This document shows, one piece after another, positions 8,305 to 62,042 of a stretch of 64,000 nt of DNA. The notes beneath the pieces are model-generated. The model ran no database searches, was not told the origin of the DNA, and saw only the letters and a list, made by a program, of their open reading frames with translations. Each line of letters starts with the position of its first letter. Positions within the stretch are counted from its first letter, which is position 1. This DNA comes from a virus (Duplodnaviria; Caudoviricetes), in the IMG/VR virus record IMGVR_UViG_3300033121_001723, positions 1 to 64,000 of that record; one strand, 5' to 3'. Both the position numbers and the translations under genes were made by a program.

Positions 8305-8320
8305 CAATTTCCGGAAATTG
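8305..8320. promoter_or_regulatory. palindromic motif copy 1 CAATTTCCGGAAATTG (perfect 20-bp palindrome 8303-8322)
   Basis: Read directly; 12 nt upstream of ATG 8292. Confidence 0.9.
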
Positions 8321-8330
8321 AAACCCAGCG

Positions 8331-8420
8331 TCAACAACACCACAACACAAAGGGACTGACCAAGCAGACCAGTCCCGAAACAACACAAGCCACCGCATAT
8401 CCAATTTCGTCGTTCGTCAT
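8331..8420 (-). CDS. 29-aa hydrophobic (single-TM) peptide
   Basis: MTNDEIGYAVACVVSGLVCLVSPFVLWCC*; AAGGAG RBS. Confidence 0.55.
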   Translation of the reverse strand: MTNDEIGYAVACVVSGLVCLVSPFVLWCC

Positions 8421-8472
8421 TTGACACTCCTTTGTCGCTGTACCGGAAACCATCCGCCCGGTCGCGGGTTCA

Positions 8473-9195
8473 TCAGCCAAAAATCGGAACGGAGTTTTGC
8501 AGCATCGCCGCGAACTCCGCCCGCAGCGCCGACTCCTCCACGAGGTAGTGGGCCCCCCATCCATTCCGCAGATTGATCTCATTCAAGCGGCTGCCCAGCA
8601 ACTTGTGCCGCGCTACCACCCAGTCGGCACTCAGGTACCTGCAGTGCAGTAATCGCAAATCCGGACTCTGGTACGTACACACCCGCCCAGTCGGTACCGC
8701 ATTGTGGCAGCCGTGGTTGTAACCGATGTCATCGATAGCCTTTGGATCGAACATGACCCACTTGCTGTAGCGCATGTCCTTGACGCCGCGAGATTCGGCT
8801 GTGAACACCGGTTCCGGAAACTCCGGAAACACGTCTGAAACGACTTGCCAGCCGTCCGGAGCCAGGATACTGCAGCCGGCACTCTTGCATTCTGGCAGCA
8901 GCTCGCCCCAGTTCGGATGGTGAATCAGCTCGTCGATGTCCACGCATACGATCCAATCCGGGCTGCGGTCGTCCGTCCAGTGATACCTCTTGACGCGGGT
9001 GATGTCGTCTTCCGAGGTCTCATAGTCCAGGTCTCGCAGCTCGCACTGCGGGTGACTCGCAATCAACTCCCGGGAGCCGTCTGTCGACATATTGTCGTAG
9101 ATGAACATCCGCTCGACGAACTGTTCGTAATGCCGCAGGAAGTGCGGCAGCATCCGGATCTCATTCCAGCAGGTACAGTACAGGTGTATCCGCAA
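8473..9195 (-). CDS. glycosyltransferase (GT-A fold, GT2-like)
   Basis: NE..MLPHFLRHY...IYDNMSTDGS...WIVCVDIDE (DxD); AAGGAG before TTG. Confidence 0.85.
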   Translation of the reverse strand: MRIHLYCTCWNEIRMLPHFLRHYEQFVERMFIYDNMSTDGSRELIASHPQCELRDLDYETSEDDITRVKRYHWTDDRSPDWIVCVDIDELIHHPNWGELLPECKSAGCSILAPDGWQVVSDVFPEFPEPVFTAESRGVKDMRYSKWVMFDPKAIDDIGYNHGCHNAVPTGRVCTYQSPDLRLLHCRYLSADWVVARHKLLGSRLNEINLRNGWGAHYLVEESALRAEFAAMLQNSVPIFG

Positions 9196-9251
9196 CTCTT
9201 TTGCTCCTTTGAACTCAAAGCGGTCAAAGTCCGCTTCACGTAGAATAGATT

Positions 9252-9285
9252 AGAGGCGGCAGTGTATCGCTACACCGCCGCCTCT
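9252..9285 (-). terminator. 15-bp hairpin with GCGA (GNRA) loop and one G-U pair on the - strand
   Basis: AGAGGCGGCGGTGTA-GCGA-TACACTGCCGCCTCT, just after the stop at 9293. Confidence 0.6.
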
Positions 9286-9292
9286 CTGCCGA

Positions 9293-9580
9293 TTACCGGA
9301 AAAATTTGGCTCCCGGACACGCCTTGCGGACTTTTGACTTGGCCTCAGACCGAGTCGAAGCCCGTACAAACCCTTCACCTGTCTCGTCGACAGTTACCCA
9401 TCGATACAGAGGTTTTGTGCCTGGTCCGCCGCCCCAGTAAGCGCCTCCTTGGTCGTAGTCTCCGTCCACAAATCGGACACGCACCAAGTAGTATCTTTGA
9501 GCTGTTGTCTCCGGCATTTTGGTTGGCCGGCCGAACGGGGCCCCGTACCGGCTACCAACCAATGTCAACTTTGGAATCAT
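9293..9580 (-). CDS. conserved phage hypothetical protein
   Basis: SRYGAPxGR...YLxRVR...GDYDxGGAYWG motif. Confidence 0.7.
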   Translation of the reverse strand: MIPKLTLVGSRYGAPFGRPTKMPETTAQRYYLVRVRFVDGDYDQGGAYWGGGPGTKPLYRWVTVDETGEGFVRASTRSEAKSKVRKACPGAKFFR

Positions 9581-9930
9581 CGCGTCTGCAAAGACCGCCT
9601 GCGACGGACCGTGGTGGTGGGGGCCAACTTGGCCGGCTTCGGTGCCTTAACACCGCCCCAAGCCAGCTTGCAGTCGGTGGCCTTCGCCAACTTCATCAGC
9701 GTACGAGCGTGGGTCCCTGGAGTAAAACTGTGCTTACGCAGCCGCAGGATCGTGGCTCGGGACAGTTTGACACGCAGGCACATGTCCCGCAGGTTCAGCC
9801 CGGCCTCTTCTTCGAGTGAGGAGAGGCAGAAGTCGACGAACCCCTGCAGCTGTCCCATGAAATCGGCATCCAGTTGCTTGGATTCTCGGATGAGCTTCTG
9901 TCGCTCGGCTTTGGTCAATTTGCTGGCCAT
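9577..9930 (-). CDS. HTH (XRE-like) DNA-binding protein
   Basis: LNLRDMCLRVKLSRATILRLRK helix-turn-helix-like segment; basic tail. Confidence 0.55.
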   Translation of the reverse strand: MASKLTKAERQKLIRESKQLDADFMGQLQGFVDFCLSSLEEEAGLNLRDMCLRVKLSRATILRLRKHSFTPGTHARTLMKLAKATDCKLAWGGVKAPKPAKLAPTTTVRRRRSLQTR

Positions 9931-14757: not shown

Positions 14758-14773
14758 GAATTTCCGGAAATTG
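14758..14773. promoter_or_regulatory. palindromic motif copy 2 GAATTTCCGGAAATTG
   Basis: Read directly; 23 nt upstream of ATG 14734. Confidence 0.9.
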
Positions 14774-14777: not shown

Positions 14778-15116
14778 TCAGAACCATCTGAACAGTCTGA
14801 CATACCACGGACATTGACTGTCCGCATCTACCCGGGCATTCATTTGGAGGTGGTCCCAGACCACTCGTTCAATATGCCGTACGGCGACCGAAACCCGGTG
14901 CACCTCCCACGGCTCGCTTGCCACCTGCGACGCAAAGTCTGACAGACTCTGGCTGCCCCCCTCTGCAAAATAGCCTTCGATCAACTTGATCATCTGGCCC
15001 ATCGCCACCTCATCGGTTGGATCTTCGCTCAGTTCGACGAGGAGGTCGCGGGCAAGCAACTTAGGGTCAATCCTATAGTCGCGACTCCCCTCACGAAACG
15101 ACAGGCTTCCCACCAT
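14778..15116 (-). CDS. hypothetical protein
   Basis: ATG 15116 overlaps the end of the AAA gene; GAGA/GAG upstream. Confidence 0.5.
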   Translation of the reverse strand: MVGSLSFREGSRDYRIDPKLLARDLLVELSEDPTDEVAMGQMIKLIEGYFAEGGSQSLSDFASQVASEPWEVHRVSVAVRHIERVVWDHLQMNARVDADSQCPWYVRLFRWF

Positions 15117-19963: not shown

Positions 19964-19979
19964 GAATTTCCGGAAATTC
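19964..19979. promoter_or_regulatory. palindromic motif copy 3 GAATTTCCGGAAATTC (perfect 18-bp palindrome 19963-19980)
   Basis: Read directly; 51 nt upstream of ATG 19912, downstream of a candidate promoter. Confidence 0.9.
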
Positions 19980-22150: not shown

Positions 22151-22208
22151 GTCGTCGTCGCTTTCTACCGCAGATACTGCGGCTGAAACGGAAAGGTAAC
22201 AGCCCGCC

Positions 22209-22547
22209 TTACTCGGCAGGAGCTGCTTCCGGCTGGGGAGACACCTTAGTGTCGACTGCTTCCCCGCTCGGAACTGATTCTTGTGATTTTGGGTCAGGTG
22301 TCGCCGGTTCGGCAGCTTTGGTGGGTCCGCCAAGAGTGTCCGGCGCAGGAGGCGTGGGTCCGCCGTCAGCTGCTTGCGGTTGATCTTGAGAGGGTCCACT
22401 GACGCCGCCGACCACGACTCCTTCATCCACCGTAAGTGCTGCTGGCTGGATAGCAGCCGGAGGAGGAGATGTATCACCTGCGTCCGGAACGCCCGGAATG
22501 AAGGTGGTTCGTTGATGACGAAATTCAGCCTCTGACAGTTCTGACAT
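22209..22547 (-). CDS. Pro/acidic low-complexity protein
   Basis: 112 aa; GGAG upstream; lies between portal and tubulin. Confidence 0.6.
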   Translation of the reverse strand: MSELSEAEFRHQRTTFIPGVPDAGDTSPPPAAIQPAALTVDEGVVVGGVSGPSQDQPQAADGGPTPPAPDTLGGPTKAAEPATPDPKSQESVPSGEAVDTKVSPQPEAAPAE

Positions 22548-22624
22548 GCTTGGGCTCCGTTAAAGTTTGTGACAAACCACTCGCCGCAGCATATCGTGAT
22601 TGTGACAAAATTCAACCGAGTAGC

Positions 22625-24466
22625 CTACTGGGCTCCCTGTTGTTGCAGCAATTGAGCCCCGCCCTGCATCCGTGCGTCGTAGCGGATCTTCTCCAAGGCG
22701 TCCAGCACGACTCGGCCAAGCACAGGATTTTGGGATTTGATGGCCGTGATCTGCCGCTTGCGGCTGGTCTCGTCCATGGTGAGCAACTGCTGTGCGATCG
22801 AGTTGCCTGTCGCCATGTATTCTTCTGGCGTTTTTGGGTTACCCAGCTGGAAGCTCTGCGTAGGATCTGCTCCGGCCGCCGCAGGAGCTCCGCCACCACC
22901 ACCAGGCTGGCCTCCTGGAGCCGCTCCTGGTTGTTGCAGCAGTGACGAGGCGGTGATAGCCCCCTGCGACGATACCTGCTGAGCCGCAGCCTGCTGATCG
23001 GCCTCTTCTTGGGCTTTGTTGGCAAGCTCGTTGGTGATCTGGGTCTCTTCGTTCTTCCGGCGTTGTTCCTCTTCCCAATCGATGCCGAGCGCTCGCAGGG
23101 CGGTCGTCTGGGAAATCTGCTGATTGAGACCCAGCTGCAGCTGTGTAGTCTGCCGTTGGATATCGTCAGCATGTGTCGGCTTATCGAGTGTCAGCTTGAC
23201 CGGTTGCCACTGCCTACGGGACGAGATGACCTTCGCATAAAAAGCCAACAGGTCGATCAGCTGATCGCGGAAGTGAGTATGATGGGACTCGAAGATCCGC
23301 AGAGCCGGGATAGCCCCTTGAGCCGTCAGTGTCCCCTTGTACAGCTCGATCGGGCAGCCGATGGAGTTGAACAGCACATCATAGCCTTGGTCCAGCAAGT
23401 CTTTCGGAGTGAAGGCAGTCGCGTCGCCTCCAAGGGCTTGGTATTTGATCGGGAACGGGAGCACGTTCCAGCGTGTCGGATCGTTGCGTCGGGCGCGGAC
23501 CATGCTATTCACGCGGGCTGCAAACGTGCTGAGCCCGAGTTTGTAACTGGGCTCACTCTCAATCGGACCGCCTGTGATCTCCGGCGTAATTACCCGGAAT
23601 GGCACCACGTAGTCCAGCGCCAAGGCCTCGTTGTACTTGTGCAACATCTGTACGTAGTACGCCACCCCGAAATTCGTCAAGGCCTTGCTGATCCCCCAGC
23701 CGCGATTGATCTGGCCGGCCAGCCGCTTCTCCTTCATGTGGTAGACGAAGCCGTCTTCAAACTCCAACCACTTGGACTCCTTGACCGCTTGGATGATCTC
23801 CCAGTTGGCTGTCTCCAAGACGCACATGTCGCCACGCCGGATCTGGTCCCGGTAATCGGCAGGAATTTTCCAGACGTAAGAGCACCGTTCTGTCAGTGGG
23901 TCGAAGATTATCTCGATCTCATACGGATTCCACCGCTTGAGGATCAAACCGCTCCCCTCAGACGATCGCCGATCGCGAGGCACCCACGGGCCTCGCTTGG
24001 TACAGCGGGGGCATCGCATGTTGAACTCGAAGTTCGACCACTGGTAGCTGAACACAGACCGCTGCTGTTTGATTGTCGACAGCGGCCGCTCAAGCCCGCA
24101 CTGAGGGCAGGCCAAGTACCGCTTGATCGGAATCAACCCTGACCCGAAGTAATTGCCGTAGAAAAAGAAGTCCAAGGACGCTTCGATCAAGTGGCTCTTG
24201 ATGTTCAGCTCTTCGTAAAGATAGTCCCGGTAACGTTTTTTCTCCTTACGGTCATCACCTTCGACAGAAACTTCCGTGATGAAGTATGCGATGATTCGCT
24301 CAATACCGGAACGGTAGACGCCCATCCGCTCGAAGATGCGTTCGCACCAGCGGAGGGCGTCAACCATCGTAGACGGCATCGTAAGTGCCGAGATATCGCA
24401 GAACGGGTCTGGCAAGCCTTCAGCTCCGCGGGACCCGCCCGCCATCATCGCACCGATTTGGGACAT
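22625..24466 (-). CDS. probable portal protein
   Basis: 613 aa; PDPF.D...MP.T...LRWCE.I...YR....RII.YF N-terminus, central RGWG motif, Q/A-rich tail; recalled similarity to large-phage portals. Confidence 0.5.
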   Translation of the reverse strand: MSQIGAMMAGGSRGAEGLPDPFCDISALTMPSTMVDALRWCERIFERMGVYRSGIERIIAYFITEVSVEGDDRKEKKRYRDYLYEELNIKSHLIEASLDFFFYGNYFGSGLIPIKRYLACPQCGLERPLSTIKQQRSVFSYQWSNFEFNMRCPRCTKRGPWVPRDRRSSEGSGLILKRWNPYEIEIIFDPLTERCSYVWKIPADYRDQIRRGDMCVLETANWEIIQAVKESKWLEFEDGFVYHMKEKRLAGQINRGWGISKALTNFGVAYYVQMLHKYNEALALDYVVPFRVITPEITGGPIESEPSYKLGLSTFAARVNSMVRARRNDPTRWNVLPFPIKYQALGGDATAFTPKDLLDQGYDVLFNSIGCPIELYKGTLTAQGAIPALRIFESHHTHFRDQLIDLLAFYAKVISSRRQWQPVKLTLDKPTHADDIQRQTTQLQLGLNQQISQTTALRALGIDWEEEQRRKNEETQITNELANKAQEEADQQAAAQQVSSQGAITASSLLQQPGAAPGGQPGGGGGAPAAAGADPTQSFQLGNPKTPEEYMATGNSIAQQLLTMDETSRKRQITAIKSQNPVLGRVVLDALEKIRYDARMQGGAQLLQQQGAQ

Positions 24467-25199: not shown

Positions 25200-25221
25200 G
25201 TCCTATCCCTGATAAATAGCT

Positions 25222-25256
25222 AAAAAAAATGAAAGTTCCGGGGTTGCCCCCGGAAC
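25222..25256 (-). terminator. rho-independent terminator with GCAA loop
   Basis: GTTCCGGGG-GCAA-CCCCGGAAC then TTTCATTTTTTTT. Confidence 0.8.
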
Positions 25257-25288
25257 CGGAAGCCTCTGCGTTAAGGCTTCACAAGACA

Positions 25289-25321: not shown

Positions 25322-25337
25322 CAATTTCCGGAAATTC
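25322..25337. promoter_or_regulatory. palindromic motif copy 4 CAATTTCCGGAAATTC
   Basis: Read directly; overlaps the TGA stop (25336-25338), adjacent to the hairpins. Confidence 0.9.
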
Positions 25338-25587
25338 AGCTTACCGGGTCTGCCTCGCGCTGAAGCTTACCCCAGTACTCCGCCGGAACTAAGAAAAACA
25401 ACCTACTGTTAACTGGCGTCCCCGTCAATGTATACGGCTGGCACAGAACAGTACCATCTTCCGGATTCTTCCAGACGGCCAGGGCGCCCTGACCGTCTGG
25501 AATTGGCCGAGAGTTTGGAAATATACTGAAACCCGGGTCAACTTGCGTCGACAGGTGCTCCAGCTGTTGAAACGTCAATCTGACCAT
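25336..25587 (-). CDS. small hypothetical protein
   Basis: GGAGG RBS; overlaps the end of the upstream gene. Confidence 0.55.
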   Translation of the reverse strand: MVRLTFQQLEHLSTQVDPGFSIFPNSRPIPDGQGALAVWKNPEDGTVLCQPYTLTGTPVNSRLFFLVPAEYWGKLQREADPVS

Positions 25588-26950
25588 GGACAGCCTCCAA
25601 GTAGGTTTGGGCGGCCTCGGGAGTCCCGTGCTTGGCCAGCAGATTCAGTACCCCGACAGCATGTTCCGGCCCGCCATTAGCCGCCAACATCTGTGCTGCC
25701 GTCGCCGCATTGAACTCTCCGCAAGCTTTTGCCGCGGCCTCGGCGGCCTCCAGCACGGCGTGGGCCCGTGCTGCAGGAACTTTCGAGGGGTCCATGACAC
25801 CGTACTTGGCCTCCCACCGTCTCCGCAAACCTCCGAAGTTTGCGAATGACGTCGGACTCTTGACCTGCAAGTCCGCAAACTTGCAAACCACCCAGTTCTG
25901 GACTACCGGCATGCCGCTCAGTTGGACCGGACCGCCATCCAAGCTGCTGAGGATGTCCTCGTTGGTCGCATATGCCGCCAACCCGCCCAGCAATGCCTTG
26001 CCAGTCGCTAAGGCCCGGTTGCGCTCCGGAGTTCCAAACTCGCCCACTGGCCGTTCTAGATGGCAACGCATCCGAACTTCCTGACTGATGTCCGGTCCTT
26101 CGGCACCCAACAACAGTGAGACGTCCTCGAACACATTGACCGGGACATGGCCTTCCCGGACCAGCGGACGGCACAGTTCGAGAGGTATGCGTGCATACAT
26201 ACCGCACTTGCTGGTCTGCTGCGCGTCGTTCCAGACAAGATCCTCGGCAACAGCCTGCGGGGTTTCCGTGGTCAACCGAAAAATCGGATTACCCTCTTGA
26301 ACCTCGCCACCCATCTGGAACAGAGCCTGTCCTTGCGTTGGGAGAACCATGTCGTAGGTTTCCCCGGACTCGGTCTGGATGCAATACCACGTCCACTCGG
26401 GCTGTCCTTCGGCCACCCAACTGCGAATAACACGGCCGGAAATCGGGACGATCAAACTTCGCATGTTGATGTTGTTCGCCATTCCACGACGCAGCGTACC
26501 GGCCTGATTGGCCAGCGCCTGCGTTCTGACACGCTCCCGTAGCGTGTCCACCGGAAACTCGACCAAGACCTCAGGCAGTGTCACGTCGCTGGCGGCCATC
26601 TCGGCCCCGGCGGCCATTTGCTGCAGCATCCGCTTCGCCATAAACAGAACAGATTCACCCCGAGGAGCCTCGCCCGTCTGACCGTTCAGATCGTGCACGA
26701 AGTCATTCCGTTGTTTTCCGCCGATCACCACTTCTGCCGAACGGGCGTCGAACTCCGCCCGATACCCTCGCAGCTGGATCTTGCCGGAAAAATCGACTTG
26801 GATTGCAATGTACTTCAGGCCACCCAACGGCACCACGCCGTTCTCGAAAGCCCCTGTCGCACTGTTTCGCCACAGTGTGTAGGCCACCGAGCCTTCAGCC
26901 AACCGCAAATCCATTGCCGACACTTCTGCTACAAATTTCGAGAAATTCAT
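25538..26950 (-). CDS. hypothetical protein with an SBHM-like segment (possible RNA polymerase beta'-like fragment)
   Basis: VPISGRV...IQTESGE...VLP.....F..G.EV.EG.PI pattern. Confidence 0.6.
   Translation of the reverse strand: MNFSKFVAEVSAMDLRLAEGSVAYTLWRNSATGAFENGVVPLGGLKYIAIQVDFSGKIQLRGYRAEFDARSAEVVIGGKQRNDFVHDLNGQTGEAPRGESVLFMAKRMLQQMAAGAEMAASDVTLPEVLVEFPVDTLRERVRTQALANQAGTLRRGMANNINMRSLIVPISGRVIRSWVAEGQPEWTWYCIQTESGETYDMVLPTQGQALFQMGGEVQEGNPIFRLTTETPQAVAEDLVWNDAQQTSKCGMYARIPLELCRPLVREGHVPVNVFEDVSLLLGAEGPDISQEVRMRCHLERPVGEFGTPERNRALATGKALLGGLAAYATNEDILSSLDGGPVQLSGMPVVQNWVVCKFADLQVKSPTSFANFGGLRRRWEAKYGVMDPSKVPAARAHAVLEAAEAAAKACGEFNAATAAQMLAANGGPEHAVGVLNLLAKHGTPEAAQTYLEAVHGQIDVSTAGAPVDAS
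26933..26948. promoter_or_regulatory. palindromic motif copy 5 AAATTTCGAGAAATTC (variant centre)
   Basis: Read directly; overlaps the start codon and first codons of 25538..26950. Confidence 0.75.
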
Positions 26951-37935: not shown

Positions 37936-37951
37936 GAATTTCCGGAAATTG
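37936..37951. promoter_or_regulatory. palindromic motif copy 6 GAATTTCCGGAAATTG
   Basis: Read directly; fills most of the 22-nt gap after the RecA stop. Confidence 0.9.
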
Positions 37952-41160: not shown

Positions 41161-44100
41161 CTACGCGACAGCCAGTTTGTGCAGCAAATCTATAACTGTG
41201 CCATCATTTTTCGGATCTTCCAGCAGCTGCGTAATCTTCGGATGGTCTGCACCCATCTTGGCTTCACAGACATCATCGATCGACTCACCGGCTCTGTAAC
41301 CGATCTCGCGACTACCCTGCAGGTGGTACGGTTCCAGCAGTGGCAGCCGGTGCCCATCAAAATCGCAGGGCCAGATATCGACCCCGTTGAACATACACTC
41401 CGGGAATACGGTCCGGTAAACCTCTGGAACATGTTCGTACGGAACCGCCAACCGGATGGCGTCGTGGATCTGCAGCGAGAACTTGAACAGGTTCGGGTTT
41501 CCCCGTCGTTCCCGGTACTCGTACATATTTCCAAGTGCTGTCCAGACAGAGTCGGCAACTAGGTTCTGAATTCGAAAATTCTTCGCTTGGCGTTCCTGAT
41601 CTGACCGCACTTTTTCGTCGTCGGTCCATGGAAACCGCCTGCGGCGTCCAAACACACCACACAGGTGCCCGGGCTCGTACACCCGTTTCACACACTCGTC
41701 CAGCTGCTCCTTGACCGCTGGATACCGCTCAAAATAGTAATCGATGATCGCCTGAGCTTCTGCCTCGGTACATGGTGTCCCTTCCGCCAGGCAGGCCATC
41801 GCAATCGCTTGGGCACTGATCCCGTACGGAGTTCCGAACACTACACCCTTGGCAGCGGTACGCAAGGACGACTTGTTGAGCTTCTTCAAGGCTTTCTTCG
41901 TAGGCTCACACTGCAGCTTGAACGCACGAACCGCCATCATCGAATGGATGTCTTGGTACTCCGGATGATTTTCCGGAAGCAGATTTCGCCGTACGTCGTC
42001 CATCCCCTGCGGGTCCTGAGACAACCACATGATCCCGGCAATTTCCGCACCGGTATAATCCGACTCCATGAACACGTGACCGGCCGGAGGGATGAATATC
42101 GACTTCACCGACACCGTGTACAACGGCTCAGGGAACAGCCGGATGTAGCTACCGCGGTGAACAGGCCCTTCGCTTGACTCTTCCAAGTAGCCCATGATTA
42201 ACCGGTAGTTGTCTTCACGCCGCGAACTGATCGCCTGCAGGTTCGGCTTCGACATCGAGCCGCGGCCTGTTTCCTTATCCTGCCGCTGTCGCCCATGCAC
42301 ACGGCCGTCGGAACTCAAATAGGACAGAAGTCCCTTTTCGTAGACGAACTCCCCGTCTTCGTCGACTTGGTAATCCCCGGTGTTCTTATCGATGTCTGGT
42401 CGTCGCAACGTTGTGGTCAACATCTGTCCTAAGAAGCGAGTGTCTCGCAACTGTGAGGCCACAAGGCTCCGTTCGGACAGGATTCCCAGCACCGTCTTGT
42501 CTGTCGACGGTGAAAACGAATCTTCCAGTCCGTCAGCTTCGATACGCGACCAGAGTTTCTTTCTCTTACCTGTCGTCAGCACAGGTTTCAGGTTCTGACT
42601 GACAGCCCCTTCCGGCAGCAGATATATCCATTGCTGCTCGGCAAATGACCCGTTCGGCGGGTTCTCCTTGTGGTACTTGTTGATCTTGGTGTTTGCCGCT
42701 TTCCACTGCTGGAAAACCTTTTTCATTTCCTTCGGCACGTAGTCCTTGTGTGGCTTACCGACATCGTCCGGCATGTAAGGCATCAACTGGGCTTCCAGTT
42801 CTTGCCGTTCTGCGTCAAACGGTGTCGGCCGCATGGCCAGGATTCTTTTGGCCCCTTCGGCAGGCGTCTCACCGTCCAGCAGCCGAAACGACGGATAACC
42901 AGGTGGTGCCATTTTCTTGGCGAACTTGTCTCCAAACAGCATCGCCCGACACTGACTATCGGACGCCGGGTTGAACGTAGGCCAATTCAGCTGCACCCGC
43001 AGGTCCGCAATTAGCTGATTCCTGACAAAGGTGAACTTGGTGGCCAACTCGGCGATGCGGACAGGATCTGGTACTACCCCCTCCATCTCCATCTCTAGGA
43101 CCGCCAATGATGCCCTATGATTCCTCCAGTACGGCTCGCGGCAGTCGTGTCCGTTGCTGTCCTTCTCGACGATCTTCGAGAGCGTGTCGCATATTCTCCA
43201 TGTCACGTCGGCGTCGTAACAGTTCGAGACAAACCCCGCCTTTGTCAGAAAATTTCCGGCCCCTTCTACTGTTAAACAGTACCGCACCCCGAGTCCCCGC
43301 CGAACCTGGGCTGCCTGGTCTAAGGCTACGACTTCCAGCACTTCCTCGCAGAAGTAGTCCGCTCCGTGCCGGATTTCGTAAGGCTTCCGGCTGGGCTTCA
43401 ACATCTTATAGCTCATCGCCGGATGACCATACCGTTCCACTAGGTTTTGCAACCCTTGGAAGGCGGCACCGACAAACTGTATAAACCGTCCCGGTGTATT
43501 GTAGGTCACGCCTGGTCCGAGCCGTGCCGACAGCCAGTCCAAAACCAGCACCTGCTCCTCGGCGTCTATTACCGCCGCGATTCTCGCACTCGGCGACTGT
43601 CGCTCGCACCCGACGAGGGTTCCGTCATCTTGGTACCATACCGCCAGCCCGATATCACCCAGGTTGGCTAACACCTCCTTCGTGATCCGTAGTTTCCGGT
43701 GCCCGTGCTCGGCCTCCGGCTTGGTTGGGAATCTGTCCGCCAAGTATCTGAAATACTTCCCATACGGAGTTTCGTACCGACGCTGCCGGCTCCTGACCCT
43801 AAGCTTCGGCTTGTGTGTCGAAAAACATGCGGCCTTCCAGTCCGCATATTCCGCCACGGCGTTACGTTGTCCGAACCCGAATCCAACAGACTTGCCGTTC
43901 TGGTGCTGCAGCCCTCCGTCTCCTAGCAAGCAGGCCAGGAAAACACTCAGCTGATCGCTAGAAAACTCAAGCTCGTCTGTTCGAATACGGTCTCCAGGCT
44001 GGAGCCGGTCGATCCGGCACTTGCCCCGTTGCGTCAAAATCTTGTGATCCGGAGTGAACACCGGACCCATTAAACCGTGCCGGCCCTGTGGCGTAGTTGC

Positions 44101-45738
44101 AGTACGTAACCGTACCCAATTTTTTTGCCCGACGTCGTTCCTGTGCCAGCCGACAACTGAGGCGTCGATAACGTCGCCGCAGGGCCCGTAGGCCTTTACT
44201 TGGCCGCCGTACTTCTCTTTAACCAACACGTCTATGGCCCGCCACGAGCCGTCAGACAATTGCACCAAGCTGCCTTTCTGCAGGCAGGCGTAGCTGTAGA
44301 ACTCGGGTTCGTCCCAGTCTCCAAACCCTTCGAGCTCGTCCTCCTCCAGTCCGTTCTTTAGACAATAGGCTTTCTTCCAGCGTTCCAACTTCACTTCATA
44401 CGGCGGGGCCGTGGTGTACTTCGACCGTAATGCTTCCAGGCCGAACGGACCGGTCTCATTGACGGCGTGCTCCATCAAGTTGGTTTCCCAGCCTGATCCC
44501 GGCTTGAACACGTCTGCCGGAGCCGGTCCCGGCTTGTAATACGGCCGCAGATCAATGCCGGCCTTCAGCAGGAACCACGGAGTATCCGACCGAAGAAAGT
44601 GCCCGCCGATCCGGGCTCCCGGCTGCGTAACTAACCGGGAAATCTGCCGGTATGCCGCCTCCGGACTCGGAGTAAAGGCAGGCTGACCGCCCGGGTGGGT
44701 CAACTTGACACAGACCGCAAACTTGGCTTTGTGGCTGAACTGGATGGTTCGCAAGTACGAACCCGGGTCCCACGGGTTTCGACCATGCCACTCGGCATCA
44801 AGGGCTCTGACCAGGGACGATGGATTTGGATCAGCCAGAATCTCGTCGACAATCTGTGCCAGCTCTGCCTCGTTGTCGACGACACGGTGGTCCACGTCTG
44901 TCTCGTCTCCTCCGATGTCGTCGCCGCACAGCAGTCGCCAGAACAGTGCTAATCCGCTGTTCAGTTCTCCCGCCATCTCGGGTTTGTTGTAGACCTGAGC
45001 AGGATGCAGGACGGCCATGACTTGGGCTGTGCCAAACTCATTCTCGCCGATCTGGTAGGTGAACTGCTCGACTCGGCCTCGCATGGCCTTCAGCGTCAGT
45101 CCTGTCAGCTCACGACAGGTGTCCGCCCCGAGACACAGGATGTACTTGGGCCGGACCAGTCTGAGTTCTTGGTGCAGTAGCGGAGCACAGTCCTCGATCA
45201 GCGTTGTAGACATCTTGGAGGCATTCTGATCGGGCGGTCGAAACCGTACGAGATTTGTCAGATACCAAGATTCTCTGGCAGTCTCGTCGATTCCGAGCTG
45301 TCCGCAGGTTCTCCAGAACAACTCGCTGGTAGGACCTTGAAAATTCAATCCCTGCTCTTCTTCTTCGGCCCCCGGGTGTTTCCCGATAACCATCACAGGG
45401 CACGGGTGGATCTCCCCGGGTGTCCAGTTATACCTGTGTCCCCGCAGAAACTTACAGGACACGTTTTTGTTACCCACCGGTATCGGTAAGGCAAAATCGT
45501 CGCTGTACAAGGCTTGAAAATGGAGCAGGGATAGCAGCGGACCCGGCTTCACCAAACGCCGGCTTCTCCCGACCCCATCGTACGTCGACACGTCTCCCAG
45601 CTGCTCGGCGTGTGCCGCAAAATGCGGGCCTGGTAAAGGCATTCCTGCGGACTCCAGGGGGTAGAACGGAGCCCCGGGCACATCTAAAACGCCTGTCGTC
45701 AACAACTGCCGGTAGACCGTCTCATCCAATGGATACAA
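41161..45738 (-). CDS. polA: family A DNA polymerase with N-terminal UDG-like domain, 3'-5' exonuclease and intein
   Basis: UDG: IGKHPG, LTNLVRFRPP, LHPA; ExoI ALDAEW; motif A ESDYTGAE, motif B AKGVVFGTPYG, motif C IHDA; GGAGG before TTG. Confidence 0.95.
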   Translation of the reverse strand: MYPLDETVYRQLLTTGVLDVPGAPFYPLESAGMPLPGPHFAAHAEQLGDVSTYDGVGRSRRLVKPGPLLSLLHFQALYSDDFALPIPVGNKNVSCKFLRGHRYNWTPGEIHPCPVMVIGKHPGAEEEEQGLNFQGPTSELFWRTCGQLGIDETARESWYLTNLVRFRPPDQNASKMSTTLIEDCAPLLHQELRLVRPKYILCLGADTCRELTGLTLKAMRGRVEQFTYQIGENEFGTAQVMAVLHPAQVYNKPEMAGELNSGLALFWRLLCGDDIGGDETDVDHRVVDNEAELAQIVDEILADPNPSSLVRALDAEWHGRNPWDPGSYLRTIQFSHKAKFAVCVKLTHPGGQPAFTPSPEAAYRQISRLVTQPGARIGGHFLRSDTPWFLLKAGIDLRPYYKPGPAPADVFKPGSGWETNLMEHAVNETGPFGLEALRSKYTTAPPYEVKLERWKKAYCLKNGLEEDELEGFGDWDEPEFYSYACLQKGSLVQLSDGSWRAIDVLVKEKYGGQVKAYGPCGDVIDASVVGWHRNDVGQKNWVRLRTATTPQGRHGLMGPVFTPDHKILTQRGKCRIDRLQPGDRIRTDELEFSSDQLSVFLACLLGDGGLQHQNGKSVGFGFGQRNAVAEYADWKAACFSTHKPKLRVRSRQRRYETPYGKYFRYLADRFPTKPEAEHGHRKLRITKEVLANLGDIGLAVWYQDDGTLVGCERQSPSARIAAVIDAEEQVLVLDWLSARLGPGVTYNTPGRFIQFVGAAFQGLQNLVERYGHPAMSYKMLKPSRKPYEIRHGADYFCEEVLEVVALDQAAQVRRGLGVRYCLTVEGAGNFLTKAGFVSNCYDADVTWRICDTLSKIVEKDSNGHDCREPYWRNHRASLAVLEMEMEGVVPDPVRIAELATKFTFVRNQLIADLRVQLNWPTFNPASDSQCRAMLFGDKFAKKMAPPGYPSFRLLDGETPAEGAKRILAMRPTPFDAERQELEAQLMPYMPDDVGKPHKDYVPKEMKKVFQQWKAANTKINKYHKENPPNGSFAEQQWIYLLPEGAVSQNLKPVLTTGKRKKLWSRIEADGLEDSFSPSTDKTVLGILSERSLVASQLRDTRFLGQMLTTTLRRPDIDKNTGDYQVDEDGEFVYEKGLLSYLSSDGRVHGRQRQDKETGRGSMSKPNLQAISSRREDNYRLIMGYLEESSEGPVHRGSYIRLFPEPLYTVSVKSIFIPPAGHVFMESDYTGAEIAGIMWLSQDPQGMDDVRRNLLPENHPEYQDIHSMMAVRAFKLQCEPTKKALKKLNKSSLRTAAKGVVFGTPYGISAQAIAMACLAEGTPCTEAEAQAIIDYYFERYPAVKEQLDECVKRVYEPGHLCGVFGRRRRFPWTDDEKVRSDQERQAKNFRIQNLVADSVWTALGNMYEYRERRGNPNLFKFSLQIHDAIRLAVPYEHVPEVYRTVFPECMFNGVDIWPCDFDGHRLPLLEPYHLQGSREIGYRAGESIDDVCEAKMGADHPKITQLLEDPKNDGTVIDLLHKLAVA
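43222..44286 (-). mobile_element. 355-aa intein with LAGLIDADG homing endonuclease (residues 485-839)
   Basis: YA|CLQKGSLVQLSDG start, block B TPDH, LACLLGDG and LAVWYQDDG, end FVSN|CYDAD. Confidence 0.92.
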
Positions 45739-45748: not shown

Positions 45749-45764
45749 CAATTTCCAGAAATTG
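45749..45764. promoter_or_regulatory. palindromic motif copy 7 CAATTTCCAGAAATTG
   Basis: Read directly; abuts the GGAGG RBS of polA. Confidence 0.9.
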
Positions 45765-55047: not shown

Positions 55048-56158
55048 CGATCTCGGCTCCCCACCGTTGAACAATCTCATCTAACACCGTTGCCGGAGGC
55101 CTGGGAGACTCCAGCAGCTGTAACGTATCCGGCTTGATCGCCGAGTCGGATTCCACCAGGGCGTCCAGACAAGCCGACAACGTCGCATCTACGACCTTGG
55201 AGCTGTCGATCACCGTGTTGAACCGGATCAAATCTTCCTTAGACTCCTCCAGCAGTTTCAGCCACCAGTGGGCCTTTCCATCCAGTGCAGATGTAATCTT
55301 CCGGTACCCGTCTGCGAACTCGGCTGGGTACGAAACTTCACACAATGGCTTACTGAGCTCTGGCGGCAGCTGTCCAATCGTCGCCAGATTCTCCACCAAG
55401 CTGACCAACTTATCCAGCTGGTCGGAAGAATCGATGCGGACCTTCAAGCACTGACGGGTCTTGAGCCGCACTGACCTGTAAGACAATTGCCGCCGCCCCG
55501 AGGAATCCACACCACCGTCGAAGCAGTACCAGAACATCTTCTCTGGAGGCTCAGCCAGATTCCGCATGCTCATCGACCCTGCTGAAAACATCGTCACAGG
55601 GCCTCGTGACGTATCGTGGGTTGTCACTTGGTGTTGATGGTAGTCTCCGGTCAGGATGTACCTGGCGTAGGGGACGTCCCGTACCGAACACTCAGGGTTC
55701 GTCAGCGACCCCATGTGCTCTGACCAGACTTGGTGACACACCAAGATGTCTGTGTCATCAGGTATTTTTGCAAACTCGGACTGTACTTCAGCACCTGCCG
55801 TCCAGTCCAAGCCGTAAAACCGCATGCCTGCAATACCGAATGCCGCTTGATGAACATGCGTCGGATGCGGATGCACGCTCATCCACGGAGGGTACCGGCG
55901 TTCGTGCTGCCCTTGCGTGAAAAACACAGGCAGTCCTGCCGCCTGCATTCTGTCCATCTGACGACACATACCCGCCACAGCCCCGGAATCAGGGCTCTCG
56001 CTGTCGAACAAGTCTCCGGCGGCGATCAACGGACAGCCGTTATCGATGCAGAAATCGACCAGTTGCTGCAAACTGAACAATGAATCGCCTGTCAGCGTGA
56101 CCCGGTGTTTCCAAGTCAGTGTCGACAGGTGCCAGTCAGACGAATGAACAAACGTCAT
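54953..56158 (-). CDS. sbcD: SbcD/Mre11-like metallophosphoesterase nuclease
   Basis: SDWHL, AGDLFD, QGQHE, HQ, GDYH. Confidence 0.92.
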   Translation of the reverse strand: MTFVHSSDWHLSTLTWKHRVTLTGDSLFSLQQLVDFCIDNGCPLIAAGDLFDSESPDSGAVAGMCRQMDRMQAAGLPVFFTQGQHERRYPPWMSVHPHPTHVHQAAFGIAGMRFYGLDWTAGAEVQSEFAKIPDDTDILVCHQVWSEHMGSLTNPECSVRDVPYARYILTGDYHQHQVTTHDTSRGPVTMFSAGSMSMRNLAEPPEKMFWYCFDGGVDSSGRRQLSYRSVRLKTRQCLKVRIDSSDQLDKLVSLVENLATIGQLPPELSKPLCEVSYPAEFADGYRKITSALDGKAHWWLKLLEESKEDLIRFNTVIDSSKVVDATLSACLDALVESDSAIKPDTLQLLESPRPPATVLDEIVQRWGAEIDASDKCAIGELVPAPRPGNEVAAGGDGVSGA

Positions 56159-56781
56159 GTTGCCTCTTTTGGGTTCCAGTTGATGTTGTCTTGGCAGAAC
56201 TTAACCGCAAACTCCTGGGCCTCCGTGGAGTTGTCTCGCACCGTGTTGGTAACTGCCCCGGCGACCCGGGCCGTAACCGAGTAACCGGGTTCTCCGCCCG
56301 TCATCTTGCGGATATAGCCTATCCGCTCTCCGGACAACAGGATCTCGAATTCTTTGTTCTTTGCTGCCCCCAGCTTTTTGAAAGAGACTTCACAGTCCCG
56401 CTTCTCCAACGTATGGTAGCACTCCAGCTTTCCGGGAGGGATTACGGGATCGTCCGGCACATTACGCAGCTCGTCCTGAAACTTTCCGAGCTCTTCATCC
56501 CGGGACCGTTTGAAGCAGGAATTGGCGTAGCGAACCATCCCGACGCACATCTGCCCACTGTCTGAGATAGCGGCGGGTGTCTTACCATCTGCCTGCAGGG
56601 CTGCGATATCCATATGGCAGATCAACTCCCCTATGTCACCAACCCGACCCACCCCTTCGACAAGCGGTCCGTGCGCGGTGTCCAGCAGATTATTGACCGT
56701 TAACGGGCCAAGGTAGCCTCGCACCGCGCCTAATCGGAACGGGCACTCCGCGCACATCTTTTTTCTCTTGAACGTCGGCAT
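56155..56781 (-). CDS. Cys-rich hypothetical protein
   Basis: CAECPFR...ICH...QMCVG motif; ATGA overlap with sbcD. Confidence 0.65.
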   Translation of the reverse strand: MPTFKRKKMCAECPFRLGAVRGYLGPLTVNNLLDTAHGPLVEGVGRVGDIGELICHMDIAALQADGKTPAAISDSGQMCVGMVRYANSCFKRSRDEELGKFQDELRNVPDDPVIPPGKLECYHTLEKRDCEVSFKKLGAAKNKEFEILLSGERIGYIRKMTGGEPGYSVTARVAGAVTNTVRDNSTEAQEFAVKFCQDNINWNPKEAT

Positions 56782-56796: not shown

Positions 56797-56812
56797 GAAT
56801 TTCTGGAAATTG
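56797..56812. promoter_or_regulatory. palindromic motif copy 8 GAATTTCTGGAAATTG in the divergent junction
   Basis: Read directly; 15 nt from ATG 56781 (-) and 19 nt from ATG 56832 (+). Confidence 0.9.
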
Positions 56813-59196: not shown

Positions 59197-59203
59197 CATA
59201 CCG

Positions 59204-59950
59204 ATGAAGCTGTCTATCCTTATGCCGGCCCTGAGCAGCCGGAAATGGCAACCTCTGGCCGAGGAAATAAAGCGGCAGTGTGCCAGGCACAAACCTGGAG
59301 AAGCCCGCTTGGCGGTGCTCGAAGACGCTGGAGAGCTGTCCAGCGGCGTGAAACGGCAAAAACTGATGGATTCGTCGACAGGTGAATACCTGTGCTTCAT
59401 CGATGATGACGACGCGGTGGCTCCCGAGTACGTCGCCAACTTGCTGCATGGCTGTAACAAGAATCCGTCCGTGGTGTCGTTCAATTTGGATCTCAAGCAC
59501 AAGAACAAGCTTGAGATCTGGAAATTCGGCATGTACCCAAACGACCGCCGACGGGGGAAAATGACCGTCAATCACCTCTGCCCTTGGCGAAGAGAGTTGG
59601 CCAGCCGGGTCGCTTGGTGCCCAGCTCTCGGCTACGCGGACGACCAGGTATGGCTGCAGCCGCTGGCCCACGCCGGGTTTCCGATCCATGAGCACCATAT
59701 CGAGCGCGTACTCTACCACTACCAGTATTCCGATGCCGTCACCGCCAACCAGACCTCCCCTCGCAAGCTGGCCGCCAAGGAGTACGTTGGCCGAGGCCTG
59801 CGGTGCTTCTTTTACGGTGAGGAGATCGTGATCGAAGTCGGTGGCACGCCTCGCCACGAAACGTCAGTTGTCGTCCGAGACCGGCACAATGTCGAACGCC
59901 GCATCCCGCTCGATGAACTGAAATGGTTCCACACGATTCGGATCGAATAA
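59204..59950 (+). CDS. GT2-like glycosyltransferase (start ATG 59204)
   Basis: MKLSILMP...SG.KRQ.L...GEYLCFIDDDD.V...Y. Confidence 0.85.
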   Translation: MKLSILMPALSSRKWQPLAEEIKRQCARHKPGEARLAVLEDAGELSSGVKRQKLMDSSTGEYLCFIDDDDAVAPEYVANLLHGCNKNPSVVSFNLDLKHKNKLEIWKFGMYPNDRRRGKMTVNHLCPWRRELASRVAWCPALGYADDQVWLQPLAHAGFPIHEHHIERVLYHYQYSDAVTANQTSPRKLAAKEYVGRGLRCFFYGEEIVIEVGGTPRHETSVVVRDRHNVERRIPLDELKWFHTIRIE

Positions 59951-60013
59951 CATGGCGACCAGCGATCTCCGGACACCACGCCGCTGGACCGGCAAATAAC
60001 CCACGGAGGGGTC

Positions 60014-60700
60014 ATGACAATCAAACATTTAACAGGCCTGACGGTCTGTGTCGACTACACGATGTACCTTGAAACGGGCATCGCACGCTGGGCAGCAGGT
60101 TTGGACAAACTGATCGTCGTGACAACGCCCAGAGACTCCGAGACACGGGATCTGTGCCGGACTTGGGGGATCATCCCACACCTCACCGACGTATTTTACG
60201 CCAACGGCGCCCACTTCAACAAAGGGGCGGCGATGGCCGAAGCTTTCGATGCGTGTGGCGACAAGCCCGACTGGTTCCTGTTCTTTGACTCTGACATTGT
60301 GCCGCCCGCCGGCTGGCGCGATGCCATTAACGCAATGGCACTGCGGCCCACGGCGTTGCACGGCTGCAACCGTACCGAGGTTGACGGGCGTCCGATCAGG
60401 GACGCAGAGATCGCTGGATTCTTTCACTTGGCACACGTATCCGATCCGAATATGCAAATCAAACCTGTCGTCGATACCCACTTCATCCACGCAGGAAACT
60501 ACGACACAACATTCATGGAGCGATGGGCTCCTGCCGATCGCGTCCGCTTGCCACTCTCCGTGGTACACGTTGGCGAGCCGCACGCAAACTGGTGCGGCAT
60601 CGGCAACGCGGACAAGCTTCAAGAAATTGTCCAGCAACGCCGACGAGGCCGGAGCTGGAGAACCGAGACGATAACACCGGATCAGCCGTTGGACAACTGA
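60014..60700 (+). CDS. glycosyltransferase-like protein
   Basis: VCVDY..YL...FNKG.AM...WFLFFDSDIV...GFFHL; GGAGG RBS. Confidence 0.8.
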   Translation: MTIKHLTGLTVCVDYTMYLETGIARWAAGLDKLIVVTTPRDSETRDLCRTWGIIPHLTDVFYANGAHFNKGAAMAEAFDACGDKPDWFLFFDSDIVPPAGWRDAINAMALRPTALHGCNRTEVDGRPIRDAEIAGFFHLAHVSDPNMQIKPVVDTHFIHAGNYDTTFMERWAPADRVRLPLSVVHVGEPHANWCGIGNADKLQEIVQQRRRGRSWRTETITPDQPLDN

Positions 60701-61347
60701 GCCGCCGCCAACCTCAATCCGTAGTGGTGCAGCTGCACCTGCATCGTTGGAATGAACCCGTCGATGTTATCGTCGTCTGGAAACAGGATGTCTCCAAACT
60801 CGTCTACCAAAGCTTGCAGATCCTCCGGGCTGCCGCAAGCCTCGTCAATCTCCTCCAGTGTGAGGTTGTTGCCTAGCAGCTCTACCGTCACAGGCTTGCT
60901 CAGCCAGTGGCTCACAAAATTTTCATCCGAGAGTTCTTGTCTATCTTGGCCTCGCTGCTGTGCAATCACGGTGACACACCGGAAAAGCGCAGTCTCAGCG
61001 TGCCAGGTGTGTCCGACTGGCGACATTTCCGACGTCCCGGCTACTAACCGGTCCAAGAAATGCTCAAGGCTGCTGCCAGCCAGTTCCAGCAAGTCACTGT
61101 GGGACTTGAACTGGTACACGGCGTCCCCTTGATCTCCCGTCACGGTCAGCTCGTTGTCCACCATACAGTAGACCAAGCTGTCGATGCCGGAACCTGGTTT
61201 TCGCCAGTTGATGACATCTAGCTGGACGCCGGCCAACACCCCTTGCTCTCGCACAGCTTTATGGTCTTTGAAAAACCGAGACATAAAGGCATCGGAGTAA
61301 AAACCCGCGTACCGGTTATACCACTTTTCGTCAGTGGCCCAGTTCAT
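60682..61347 (-). CDS. hypothetical protein
   Basis: Converges on the GT cassette with 19-nt overlap; W.KPG...Y...L.V.GD.G.AVY motif. Confidence 0.65.
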   Translation of the reverse strand: MNWATDEKWYNRYAGFYSDAFMSRFFKDHKAVREQGVLAGVQLDVINWRKPGSGIDSLVYCMVDNELTVTGDQGDAVYQFKSHSDLLELAGSSLEHFLDRLVAGTSEMSPVGHTWHAETALFRCVTVIAQQRGQDRQELSDENFVSHWLSKPVTVELLGNNLTLEEIDEACGSPEDLQALVDEFGDILFPDDDNIDGFIPTMQVQLHHYGLRLAAAQLSNG

Positions 61348-62018
61348 AACTGCGTCTCTTGTGTGACAGTCCTGTAAACGTAGTCGGATACGAGGTCCTT
61401 TGTATCCGTCTGAACGGTCTGGTAATCATGCACCGTTCGCCATGGCGACATACAGCTGTCGCTGGCCATCCGTCGATAAACGTCAATCACGCGTTTCAGG
61501 TAGGGCTTAGCAGCCTCGTGGAGATCTTCCGCCTTGTCTGTGTAGGCCCGCTTCTGCTTCAACAGCACGCGAGCCGCGGCCAGCTCCGGTGGGACATCCA
61601 ATAACAACTGCAGATCCGGAACAGGCATCGCGTTGACCGTGTACTCGACGTACGTGATCCAGTTTCTCAACGCTTCCGCCTGCTCTGCCGGCACCTTGGC
61701 ACATTGATGGGCGATGTTTGAACTCACGTACCTGTCGCACAAGACCACGTCGGAGGACGACAGGGCAGCCATCAGATCCGCCCGGGCAGCCACCCGGTCC
61801 ATGGCGTAAATCAGCGACACCAAGTGCGGGTCGTTGGCATCTCCGAAATCGCCGTTCAGGTACTTCCCCACCATCTCCCCACACTTGGACTGTGTGTAGC
61901 GGGGAAATGAAAACACCGCGACCTTGTGTCCGGCGTCCTGTAACTTCTCGGCCAAGAGGGCCGTCTGTGTCCCCTTTCCGGAGCCGTCGACCCCCTCGAT
62001 TGCGATAAAAACTGCCAA
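61344..62018 (-). CDS. tmk: thymidylate kinase
   Basis: FIAIEGVDGSGKGTQ, CDRYVSSN.AHQ, PDLQLLLDV. Confidence 0.92.
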   Translation of the reverse strand: MAVFIAIEGVDGSGKGTQTALLAEKLQDAGHKVAVFSFPRYTQSKCGEMVGKYLNGDFGDANDPHLVSLIYAMDRVAARADLMAALSSSDVVLCDRYVSSNIAHQCAKVPAEQAEALRNWITYVEYTVNAMPVPDLQLLLDVPPELAAARVLLKQKRAYTDKAEDLHEAAKPYLKRVIDVYRRMASDSCMSPWRTVHDYQTVQTDTKDLVSDYVYRTVTQETQL

Positions 62019-62026
62019 TGCTCCTC

Positions 62027-62042
62027 CAATTTCTGGAAATTG
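62027..62042. promoter_or_regulatory. palindromic motif copy 9 CAATTTCTGGAAATTG
   Basis: Read directly; between the upstream stop (62045) and the GGAGGAG RBS of tmk. Confidence 0.9.

Follow-up and report, generated by a model that had tools for sequence, protein, structure and literature searches.

Dispersed, perfectly conserved dyads are known from a few phage groups, represented by the Cluster O repeats and the stoperators, and most of them are unexplained. Cluster O mycobacteriophages carry a 17-bp dyad repeat, 5′-TGTTCGGNNNCCGAACA, which has been read as the site of a dimeric regulator and whose function is unknown (PMC4351075). The stoperators of Cluster A phages, recognized by repressors of the L5 gp71 type, are asymmetric 13-bp sites that are bound by a monomer, face in one orientation and belong to temperate phages (PMC9283540, PMC6550527). 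Here we describe a comparable element, the palindrome AATTTCNNGAAATT (AATTTC-NN-GAAATT), which occurs nine times in the first 64 kb of the 75,953-bp IMG/VR record IMGVR_UViG_3300033121_001723 (Duplodnaviria; Caudoviricetes). This stretch of 64,000 nucleotides is referred to below as the window and the whole record as G000; as CheckV puts the record at 37% completeness, the full genome should be about 200 kb long. The motif is symmetric, invariant in its arms, specific to the phage, placed at gene junctions, evenly spaced, conserved in the closest relative and subject to turnover. Tentatively, we interpret it as the target of a dimeric DNA-binding protein of the phage that would affect transcription where one cistron ends and the next begins.

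In its form the element comes closest to the Cluster O repeat. Both are short inverted repeats with invariant arms, a variable center and many dispersed copies, found mostly in short intergenic gaps or at gene 5′ ends; indels between relatives are associated with both, and the Cluster O repeat is absent from host genomes, where the present motif is rare (PMC4351075). The two differ in several respects: their sequences and the phyla of their hosts are unrelated, the arms of the present motif are AT-rich in a GC-rich genome, its layout is 6-N2-6 (or 5-N4-5) instead of 7-N3-7, its density is approximately 1 per 7–9 kb vs. 1 per 2 kb, almost none of its copies lies inside coding sequence, and its conservation at orthologous junctions extends across approximately 20–40% protein divergence. 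Since its sequence differs from that of the Cluster O repeat, it is an analogue and not a homologue. With the stoperators it shares a set of near-identical sites located genome-wide in short intergenic spaces, away from recognizable promoters, as well as a site specificity that varies between related phages (PMC9283540, PMC6550527). Unlike them, it is a perfect 14–18-bp dyad, and no lysogeny module (integrase or repressor) was recognized in Pfam scans, which covered nearly all called G000 proteins and the proteins of up to 400 aa of two further contigs, G003 and G008. By analogy, the motif may be stoperator-like in function and Cluster O-like in form.

Exact pattern matching returned nine copies in the window, starting at positions 8306, 14759, 19965, 25323, 26934, 37937, 45750, 56798, and 62028. 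This agrees with the number given in the initial annotation, whose coordinates were 1 nt lower because the flanking S base (C or G) had been counted in. In dinucleotide-preserving shuffles of the window (n = 100) the mean number of matches was 0.00 and the maximum 0, and allowing two mismatches added a single site (60615), close to the 1.35 expected by chance. A chance origin of the motif was thus ruled out by the shuffles and the mismatch count. A tenth exact copy is located at 68443 of the record, which gives 10 exact copies per 76 kb, and a copy with one mismatch is present near 71200. The motif is by far the most over-represented word of the record and the sole clearly enriched word upstream of phage genes. 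Isolated half-sites (AATTTC and GAAATT) occur in approximately the numbers estimated by hand from base frequencies; therefore, only the paired form is special. A literature search for the motif itself returned only unrelated NF-kappaB probes.

The element is not confined to this record. IMG/VR scans for the 14-mer with a CG center gave mostly single chance matches; four copies were found in the 41-kb contig G003 and a fifth in the overlapping contig G008, which extends it (5 copies in 56 kb), and no other viral contig in these scans carried multiple copies. The window is colinear with 0–38 kb of a related genome, G001, and G003 with 52–97 kb of the same genome, while a 212-kb relative holds both the G000-type and the G003-type module, from which we infer that G000 and G003/G008 are different parts of the same or of a sibling phage. 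The G003/G008 copies are located 3–37 nt ahead of start codons, and three of them overlap the upstream stop codon by 1–2 bases. The presence of one copy before a baseplate-wedge gene indicates that the motif is not restricted to replication or glycosylation genes. The initial annotation had proposed a genome-wide, non-random element that would suit a dimeric protein, and this part of it was supported: the tenth copy of the record and the five copies of G003/G008 place the motif well outside the window. Its version of a functional regulon of replication, nucleotide and glycosylation genes had to be abandoned, as copies also stand before the baseplate-wedge gene and many genes of unknown function, and one conserved copy lies at the 3′ end of a gene, before a terminator.

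Among the 15 exact copies of G000, G003, and G008 all 30 arms are invariant. Alignment of these copies by gene direction revealed conservation outside the core only at T (-2) and A (+2), and the motif can therefore be written as an 18-bp dyad, T-S-AATTTC-YR-GAAATT-S-A. In the 10 copies of the record the center is CG (six copies), CA/TG (three) or GA (one); on the + strand the flanking S is present in nine and in all 10 copies, respectively, and the outer A in all 10. Departures from the 18-bp form occur in copies with an abutting ribosome-binding site, and this explains the asymmetry of the flanks. The outer S bases pair in 6/10 copies, which is approximately the chance level, and vary independently, without co-variation, so that the initial description of fixed arms and uncompensated outer bases was borne out. 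As RNA, the motif would form a hairpin of only 0 to −2.4 kcal/mol, which is absent from most local minimum-energy folds, and neither Rfam matches nor tRNAs were found. An RNA hairpin or a known RNA family was ruled out by the weak folds and the lack of an Rfam match. The 18-bp dyad, the uncompensated outer bases and the weak hairpin also agree with the earlier view that the motif fits a dimeric DNA-binding protein better than an RNA stem.

The same data bear on the possibility that the motif acts in RNA, either as a recognition site for a phage or host endoribonuclease or as a site for a translational repressor beside the ribosome-binding site. All copies lie on transcribed junctions, the palindrome reads alike in RNA from either strand, several copies abut GGAGG or replace the Shine-Dalgarno sequence, and RNase E typically targets AU-rich single-stranded stretches of GC-rich mRNA. 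Nevertheless, we consider action in RNA improbable: besides the weakness of the hairpin, the chance-level pairing of the outer positions and the lack of an Rfam match, the start codon may be as near as 3 nt or as far as 51 nt, one of the conserved copies stands at a gene end, and an RNA signal does not need the dyad symmetry of DNA.

The closest relative found by protein searches was ENA scaffold_65 (212,089 bp), with identities of 83% for RecA, 74% for a sigma factor and 61% for a helix-turn-helix (HTH) protein; a metagenome scan with RecA found nothing. In the five scaffold_65 loci covered (approximately 82 kb) we counted six exact copies and six copies with one mismatch, the latter against approximately 0.1 expected from a hand estimate based on base frequencies, and each of the one-mismatch copies retains one perfect half-site. 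Conservation at orthologous junctions, which the initial annotation had put forward as a check, was found at seven sites. The motif is exact at the counterparts of copies 14759 (L291 4646), 19965 (L295 19242, with a CA center), 25323 (L295 13832, where the stop codon, the motif, three hairpins and a U-rich tail are all kept), 45750 (L292 4586, upstream of polA), and 56798 (L296 3230, with the flanks conserved too). It has one mismatch at the counterparts of copy 8306 and of the G003 copy at 24188. Scaffold_65 has no counterpart of copies 26934 and 37937 and has one extra copy. In the motif-anchored comparison of G000 with scaffold_65 the arms were identical at 71/72 positions and the 45-nt flanks at 36–39%. 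Retention at orthologous junctions points to selection and, as judged from these alignments, shows the motif to be under purifying selection there.

Outside this lineage the motif disappears. In G001 and G002, which are syntenic with the window at 30–57% protein identity, no copy was found even when one mismatch was allowed, and relatives with 54% and 50% RecA identity have no motif in the approximately 16–20 kb around recA. The motif-less relatives span 47–54% RecA identity and their junctions are plain stop/start overlaps, which in G001 and G002 include a Shine-Dalgarno sequence. At the junction of copy 37937 the motif is absent from scaffold_65 and G001 alike, and stop and start nearly overlap. 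In view of the plain overlaps in G001 and G002, the motif looks like a 15–22-nt insertion in the G000 lineage. A different dyad that shares the 5-N4-5 layout, (CTT)TATTG-N4-CAATA(AAG), is over-represented in G001 and G002, with six distinct sites (G001 14330, 35861, 40433, 45476, and 61860; G002 24130) vs. approximately 0.05 expected from a hand base-frequency estimate. As only 2/6 of these sites are intergenic, this dyad is at best a partial analogue of the motif; still, a different dyad in a sister lineage is what is expected from a co-evolving protein-site pair. Two of its copies have a terminator on one side and a start codon on the other, in one case ahead of the recA-like gene, and both dyads have a common ATT-N6-AAT register.

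Insertion into tight junctions, together with gain and loss of copies between close relatives, could also reflect a selfish or recombination-linked mini-element with no regulatory role, which spreads by copy-paste or gene conversion and marks module boundaries, comparable to REP (repetitive extragenic palindromic)/RAYT elements or to the PeSL cassettes of T4-type phages. Such a view would accommodate several positions: copies 19965 and 56798 stand just beyond the ends of the block colinear with G002 (approximately 20274 to 56158, at distances of 300 and 640 nt), the polA copy borders an approximately 750-nt lineage-specific insert, and three copies bracket cassettes of approximately 1.9 kb in a genomic island of Schlesneria described below. 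Yet the copies have neither target-site duplications nor shared flanks, no Y1 transposase (RAYT or IS200-type) turned up in the Pfam scans, and the hairpin is too weak for REP; neither the stable GC-rich hairpin of 20–40 nt nor the terminal inverted repeats with target duplications that would mark REP/RAYT elements or miniature inverted-repeat transposable elements were seen. Moreover, 98.6% identity in the arms vs. 37% in the flanks argues for functional selection, unless conversion were continuous. We regard a mini-element as very improbable, and both this reading and the RNA-level one as weaker than the promoter and DNA-organizing alternatives considered below. The G002 homologues of the glycosyltransferase and thymidylate kinase (tmk) genes are located elsewhere in G002.

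Nearly all genes of G000 are encoded on the - strand. In gene direction, the motif typically begins 3–11 nt past the upstream stop codon and the next start follows 3–51 nt further, in junctions of 22–65 nt. At least 9/10 copies are non-coding, whereas the non-coding share of the record is approximately 9–12% (binomial P about 2e-9). Closeness to start codons is weak evidence alone, because in such a compact genome nearly every intergenic position is no more than 50 nt from a start; for six copies the distance from motif to start codon was 13, 24, 4, 11, 16, and 9 nt. The placement at gene junctions, the contact of the polA and tmk copies with GGAGG and the copy at the divergent junction were all found as described earlier.

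The first copy, AATTTCCGGAAATT (8306..8319; full 18-bp dyad 8304-8321), is located 33 nt past an intrinsic terminator and 13 nt ahead of the ATG at 8292, which starts a 96-aa gene. The second (14759..14772) follows the stop codon of 14778..15116 by 5 nt, with ATG 14734 24 nt further on and AGGAGG between them. The third (19965..19978) occupies an intergenic region of approximately 290 nt, past two terminator-like hairpins and 51 nt before ATG 19912. The fourth (25323..25336) overlaps the TGA that ends 25336..25587; past it on the - strand come three hairpins, the third being a canonical terminator with a U8-9 tail. Within this stretch (25190-25336, - strand) the third hairpin, CCGGGGGCAACCCCGG, and its U8-9 tail are nearly identical in scaffold_65; the sequence of the first two hairpins differs there and their fold persists. 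The next gene starts approximately 20–25 nt past the U-tract. The fifth copy (26934..26947; center GA/TC) stands directly past ATG 26950, or 19 nt before the in-frame ATG 26914, and 110 nt past the terminator 27084-27057. Its right half with the downstream bases, GAAATTTGTAGCA, recurs approximately 70 nt upstream as GGAAATTGTAGCA (26934-27020, - strand), a local direct repeat of the half-site. The sixth (37937..37950) fills the 22-nt junction from the stop of the recA-like gene (37955) to ATG 37932, where a gene of 181 aa begins that lacks a separate ribosome-binding site. The seventh (45750..45763) abuts GGAGG, has the TTG start of UDG-polA (41161..45738) 11 nt further on, and lies approximately 250 nt past a terminator-like hairpin. 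The eighth (56798..56811) is in the middle of the only divergent junction, 50 nt long, between 56155..56781 (- strand) and the glycosyltransferase block on the + strand. The ninth (62028..62041) begins 3 nt past the TAA of 62045..62977 and abuts GGAGG, 9 nt ahead of the TTG start of tmk (61344..62018).

The ten copies of the record are spaced more evenly than random junctions (coefficient of variation 0.446, P about 0.007), in a test that was post hoc; by our own arithmetic on coordinates, spacing looks less regular in G003/G008 and in scaffold_65. Even spacing is what a DNA-organizing site set would predict, be it centromere-like, ParB/Noc/KorB-like or loop-anchor-like, with a phage protein loaded on an even array for compaction, positioning, replication or packaging, and with sites at junctions only because coding sequence cannot hold them. 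Such a role would also suit the placement at gene starts and at one gene end without a consistent tie to expression signals, and the presence of a tubulin gene in the phage. The half-site resembles those of parS (TGTTTCAC-GTGAAACA) and of the Noc-binding site, NBS (TATTTCCC-GGGAAATA), which, like the KorB operator OB, are dispersed 14–18-bp dyads built on TTTC...GAAA (PMC7383237 for parS and NBS). The gap between TTTC and GAAA is, however, 2 bp in the phage motif and 4 bp in parS and NBS, and placement here is strictly at gene junctions. KorB operators act at or far from promoters. A ParB_N domain (PF02195) was not found in G000–G003 or G008, which represent approximately two-thirds of the genome type, and the positive controls worked. 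The KorB/parS-like set of the initial annotation has no protein support in these records. Known phage tubulin centromeres, in turn, are clustered iterons. Taken with the post hoc nature of the spacing test, this leaves the DNA-organizing interpretation only a slim chance.

We also considered that phage-directed transcription uses the motif as a promoter or promoter core, read either by the host polymerase with a phage sigma-70-family factor or by an unseen phage polymerase, with a start inside or just past the motif and possibly in both directions. No -35/-10 element was present at a fixed distance and no upstream column was conserved when the 15 copies were aligned; sigma-70-like promoter matches (-35 and -10 hexamers 16–18 bp apart) occurred in the window at chance level and none fell at the copies, by which a conventional sigma-70 promoter was rejected. 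A self-contained promoter remains a serious rival. Like the class II/III promoters of T7 and the hairpin promoters of N4, the motif is an invariant sequence found every few kb before ribosome-binding sites, within operons as well as past terminators, lineage-specific and absent from the host, and no other word is clearly enriched upstream of the phage genes. Four copies (8306, 19965, 26934, and 45750) come 33–290 nt after terminator-like hairpins. Two promoters have to fit into the divergent junction of 50 nt, and the motif stands at its center and is kept in scaffold_65. Each half, S-AATTT, can be read as a -10-like hexamer that has A at position 2 and T at position 6.

The phage also encodes a sigma-70-family protein of 263 aa (G003 22527..23321; L134:2530-3321) with region 3 and a C-terminal HTH. 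It matched Sigma70_r3 with 26 bits, above the Pfam cut-off, and its G001 orthologue (67647..68354) with 39 bits; sigma-70 region 2 was not found. The family is kept across the phage group (33 relatives) and is equally present in relatives without the motif, of which many have an orthologue. Some of the relatives carry the JGI name 'specialized sigma subunit'. A T7-type polymerase (PF00940) was not found, a weak result since the control genomes were silent too. Neither sigma factors nor single-subunit polymerases read perfect 18-bp dyads: known phage promoter sets are asymmetric and co-oriented with genes or, in N4, GC-stemmed hairpins, whereas the dyad would drive antisense transcription at every copy. 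The conserved copy 25323 would fire straight into three hairpins and a U9 terminator, four other strong terminators precede genes without the motif, and three copies are only 3–4 nt from a start codon. Considering both sides, we judge a promoter function unlikely, albeit the strongest of the competing explanations. The start-associated sequences (SAS) and extended SAS (ESAS) of Cluster K phages likewise recur at gene starts, are missing from the host and have no known function (PMC3203893). They differ in being asymmetric and in overlapping the Shine-Dalgarno sequence at a fixed short distance (PMC3203893), unlike the 3–51 nt to the start and the copy overlapping a stop codon observed here.

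Analysis of host genomes showed that the motif belongs to the phage. In 61 genomes of the host family (approximately 390 Mb) there were 11 copies, i.e., approximately 0.03 per Mb vs. approximately 130 per Mb in the phage, and three of these are located in one Schlesneria genomic island. Two Schlesneria metagenome-assembled genomes (MAGs), G012 and G013 (7.8 and 8.4 Mb), have 6–7 copies each, some of them inside a conserved coding context (a paralogue family) recurring on three contigs, while in each of sixty other genomes of the same family there was at most one copy. When species genomes were scanned for the 18-bp form, single matches turned up here and there, mostly in AT-rich taxa. Given this rarity, both a host regulon and a host promoter were rejected, on the basis of 0–1 copies per family genome and the location of MAG copies in coding paralogues. 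Absence from the host and from distant relatives therefore indicates that the motif system is lineage-specific and self-contained. The island (25–32 kb of the 34.6-kb contig CAXBSB010000056.1 of G012, G012:C56; L272:5400-12300) has three perfect 18-bp sites approximately 1.9 kb apart and adjoins ordinary metabolic genes. Besides genes of unknown function, it encodes a reverse transcriptase (RT)-RNase H, an HTH_17 protein and a protein homologous (32% identity) to one of 324 aa in G008, for which we found no family and no useful atlas lead. Possibly the island, as a satellite, a defence island or a prophage remnant, is tuned to the phage, and the host may reasonably be sought among Schlesneria-like planctomycetes.

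The scans recovered only two candidates for DNA recognition, the sigma-70-family protein and a Cro/C1-type HTH protein of 117 aa encoded at 9577..9930 on the - strand (Pfam HTH_26, 23.3 bits at a cut-off of 22), which is the only recognizable sequence-specific HTH protein found in the window. Its AlphaFold2 model (pLDDT 72) resembles dimeric XRE regulators; the top Foldseek matches were C.Esp1396I, C.AhdI, HipB, ClgR, SinR, and P22 c2, with a probability of about 1 but weak E-values (0.05–0.5). The scaffold_65 orthologue is 61% identical and nearly identical in the HTH region. G000 and scaffold_65 thus have both the motif and an XRE-type HTH protein with a conserved recognition region; no homologue was found in G001, G003, G008, the Schlesneria island, or the MAGs G012 and G013. 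On the strength of this co-occurrence and of the conserved recognition region, 9577..9930 is a candidate, and the only one, for the protein that binds the motif. It was one of two HTH genes suggested in the initial annotation and proved to be a genuine Cro/C1-type protein; the other, 35423..36229, had only a weak DUF1016_N match and is also found in motif-less relatives.

The 18-bp symmetry, the invariant arms around a free center, the variants that keep one half-site and the lack of a stable stem or of co-variation argue for recognition of double-stranded DNA by a phage homodimer. Location at cistron boundaries, the absence of promoter elements and a position too near to start codons for an activator site make a roadblock or operator the most economical role. 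According to the model that we favor, a phage-encoded homodimer would recognize the 18-bp dyad with one monomer per half-site, leaving the central two base pairs unread. The sites would have been inserted into short junctions of co-directional genes and kept there by selection. Once occupied, they would act on transcription, serving either as roadblocks or as operators that cover weak internal start points. The one-strand gene arrays would thereby be cut into separately controllable units of approximately 5–11 kb, and the single site at the divergent junction would control both outward units. Protein binding, the identity of the binder and the effect on transcription are what we infer from these patterns.

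Several observations weigh against this model. The binding protein is a candidate, and the HTH gene 9577..9930 has no motif at its own promoter and is absent from the Schlesneria island, which holds three perfect sites. The G000 sites have almost no degenerate tail (10 exact copies and one near copy), and a set this sharp is less typical of operators than of phage-polymerase promoters or copy-paste elements. At least 15 independent insertions of an identical 14-mer would be hard to achieve by point mutation, which implies some templated spread. As no lysogeny genes were seen, stoperator-like silencing lacks support from lifestyle. Copy 25323, before its triple-hairpin terminator, is not obviously useful as a roadblock, and the even spacing and junction placement fit a DNA-organizing role equally well.

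The Pfam content of the phage includes a polA gene with UDG and LAGLIDADG domains, SbcCD, RecA-like, tubulin, AAA and GHKL ATPase, primase, helicase, ThyX, Tmk, glycosyltransferase, HNH, terminase and collagen-like proteins; PHROGs, used on ten larger G003 proteins, gave no match for the large unknown ones. The tubulin/FtsZ-family protein is encoded at 21098-22615 of the window (Pfam Tubulin, 5.5e-13) and at L295 16719..18086 of scaffold_65. The polA product (41161-45738) is 1525 aa long; it carries a UDG domain at its N-terminus and, at residues 600-738, a LAGLIDADG_2 insert. This insert is missing from the orthologous proteins of scaffold_65 (1170 aa), of G001 (1127 aa) and of L293 (1123 aa) and is therefore a lineage-specific intein or homing-endonuclease insertion. 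In scaffold_65, thyX (L292:15998-17336) consists of two open reading frames of 105 and 248 aa, both Thy1, approximately 275 nt apart, whereas in the window it is one 336-aa gene (32431..33441). The split may be due to an intron or another insertion.

A further interpretation, to which we assign a chance as slim as that of a purely DNA-organizing set, is that the dyads are sites of a phage genome-control system not yet described, in which a symmetric factor recruits or modifies the host RNA polymerase, or which couples genome organization to expression. If the polymerase factor proved to be true, it would provide for bidirectional start, insulation or antitermination at every transcription-unit boundary; in the other version, a tubulin-encoding planctomycete jumbo phage would tie the organization of its genome to expression. 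In either case the Schlesneria island with its reverse transcriptase would be wired to a phage regulator, as a phage-sensing island or a satellite.

The motif is the first example of such dispersed dyads in a large, uncultured phage lineage that probably infects planctomycetes. It comes with comparative evidence for selection, namely exact retention at junctions amid diverged flanks, gain and loss of copies, and a different dyad in the sister lineage. Two testable partners are at hand, one XRE-type HTH protein and one phage sigma factor, and the motif serves as a sequence tag that ties phage fragments to each other and to Schlesneria-type hosts. If the sites do act as roadblocks or insulators in a lytic jumbo phage, the stoperator idea would be extended beyond temperate actinophages.

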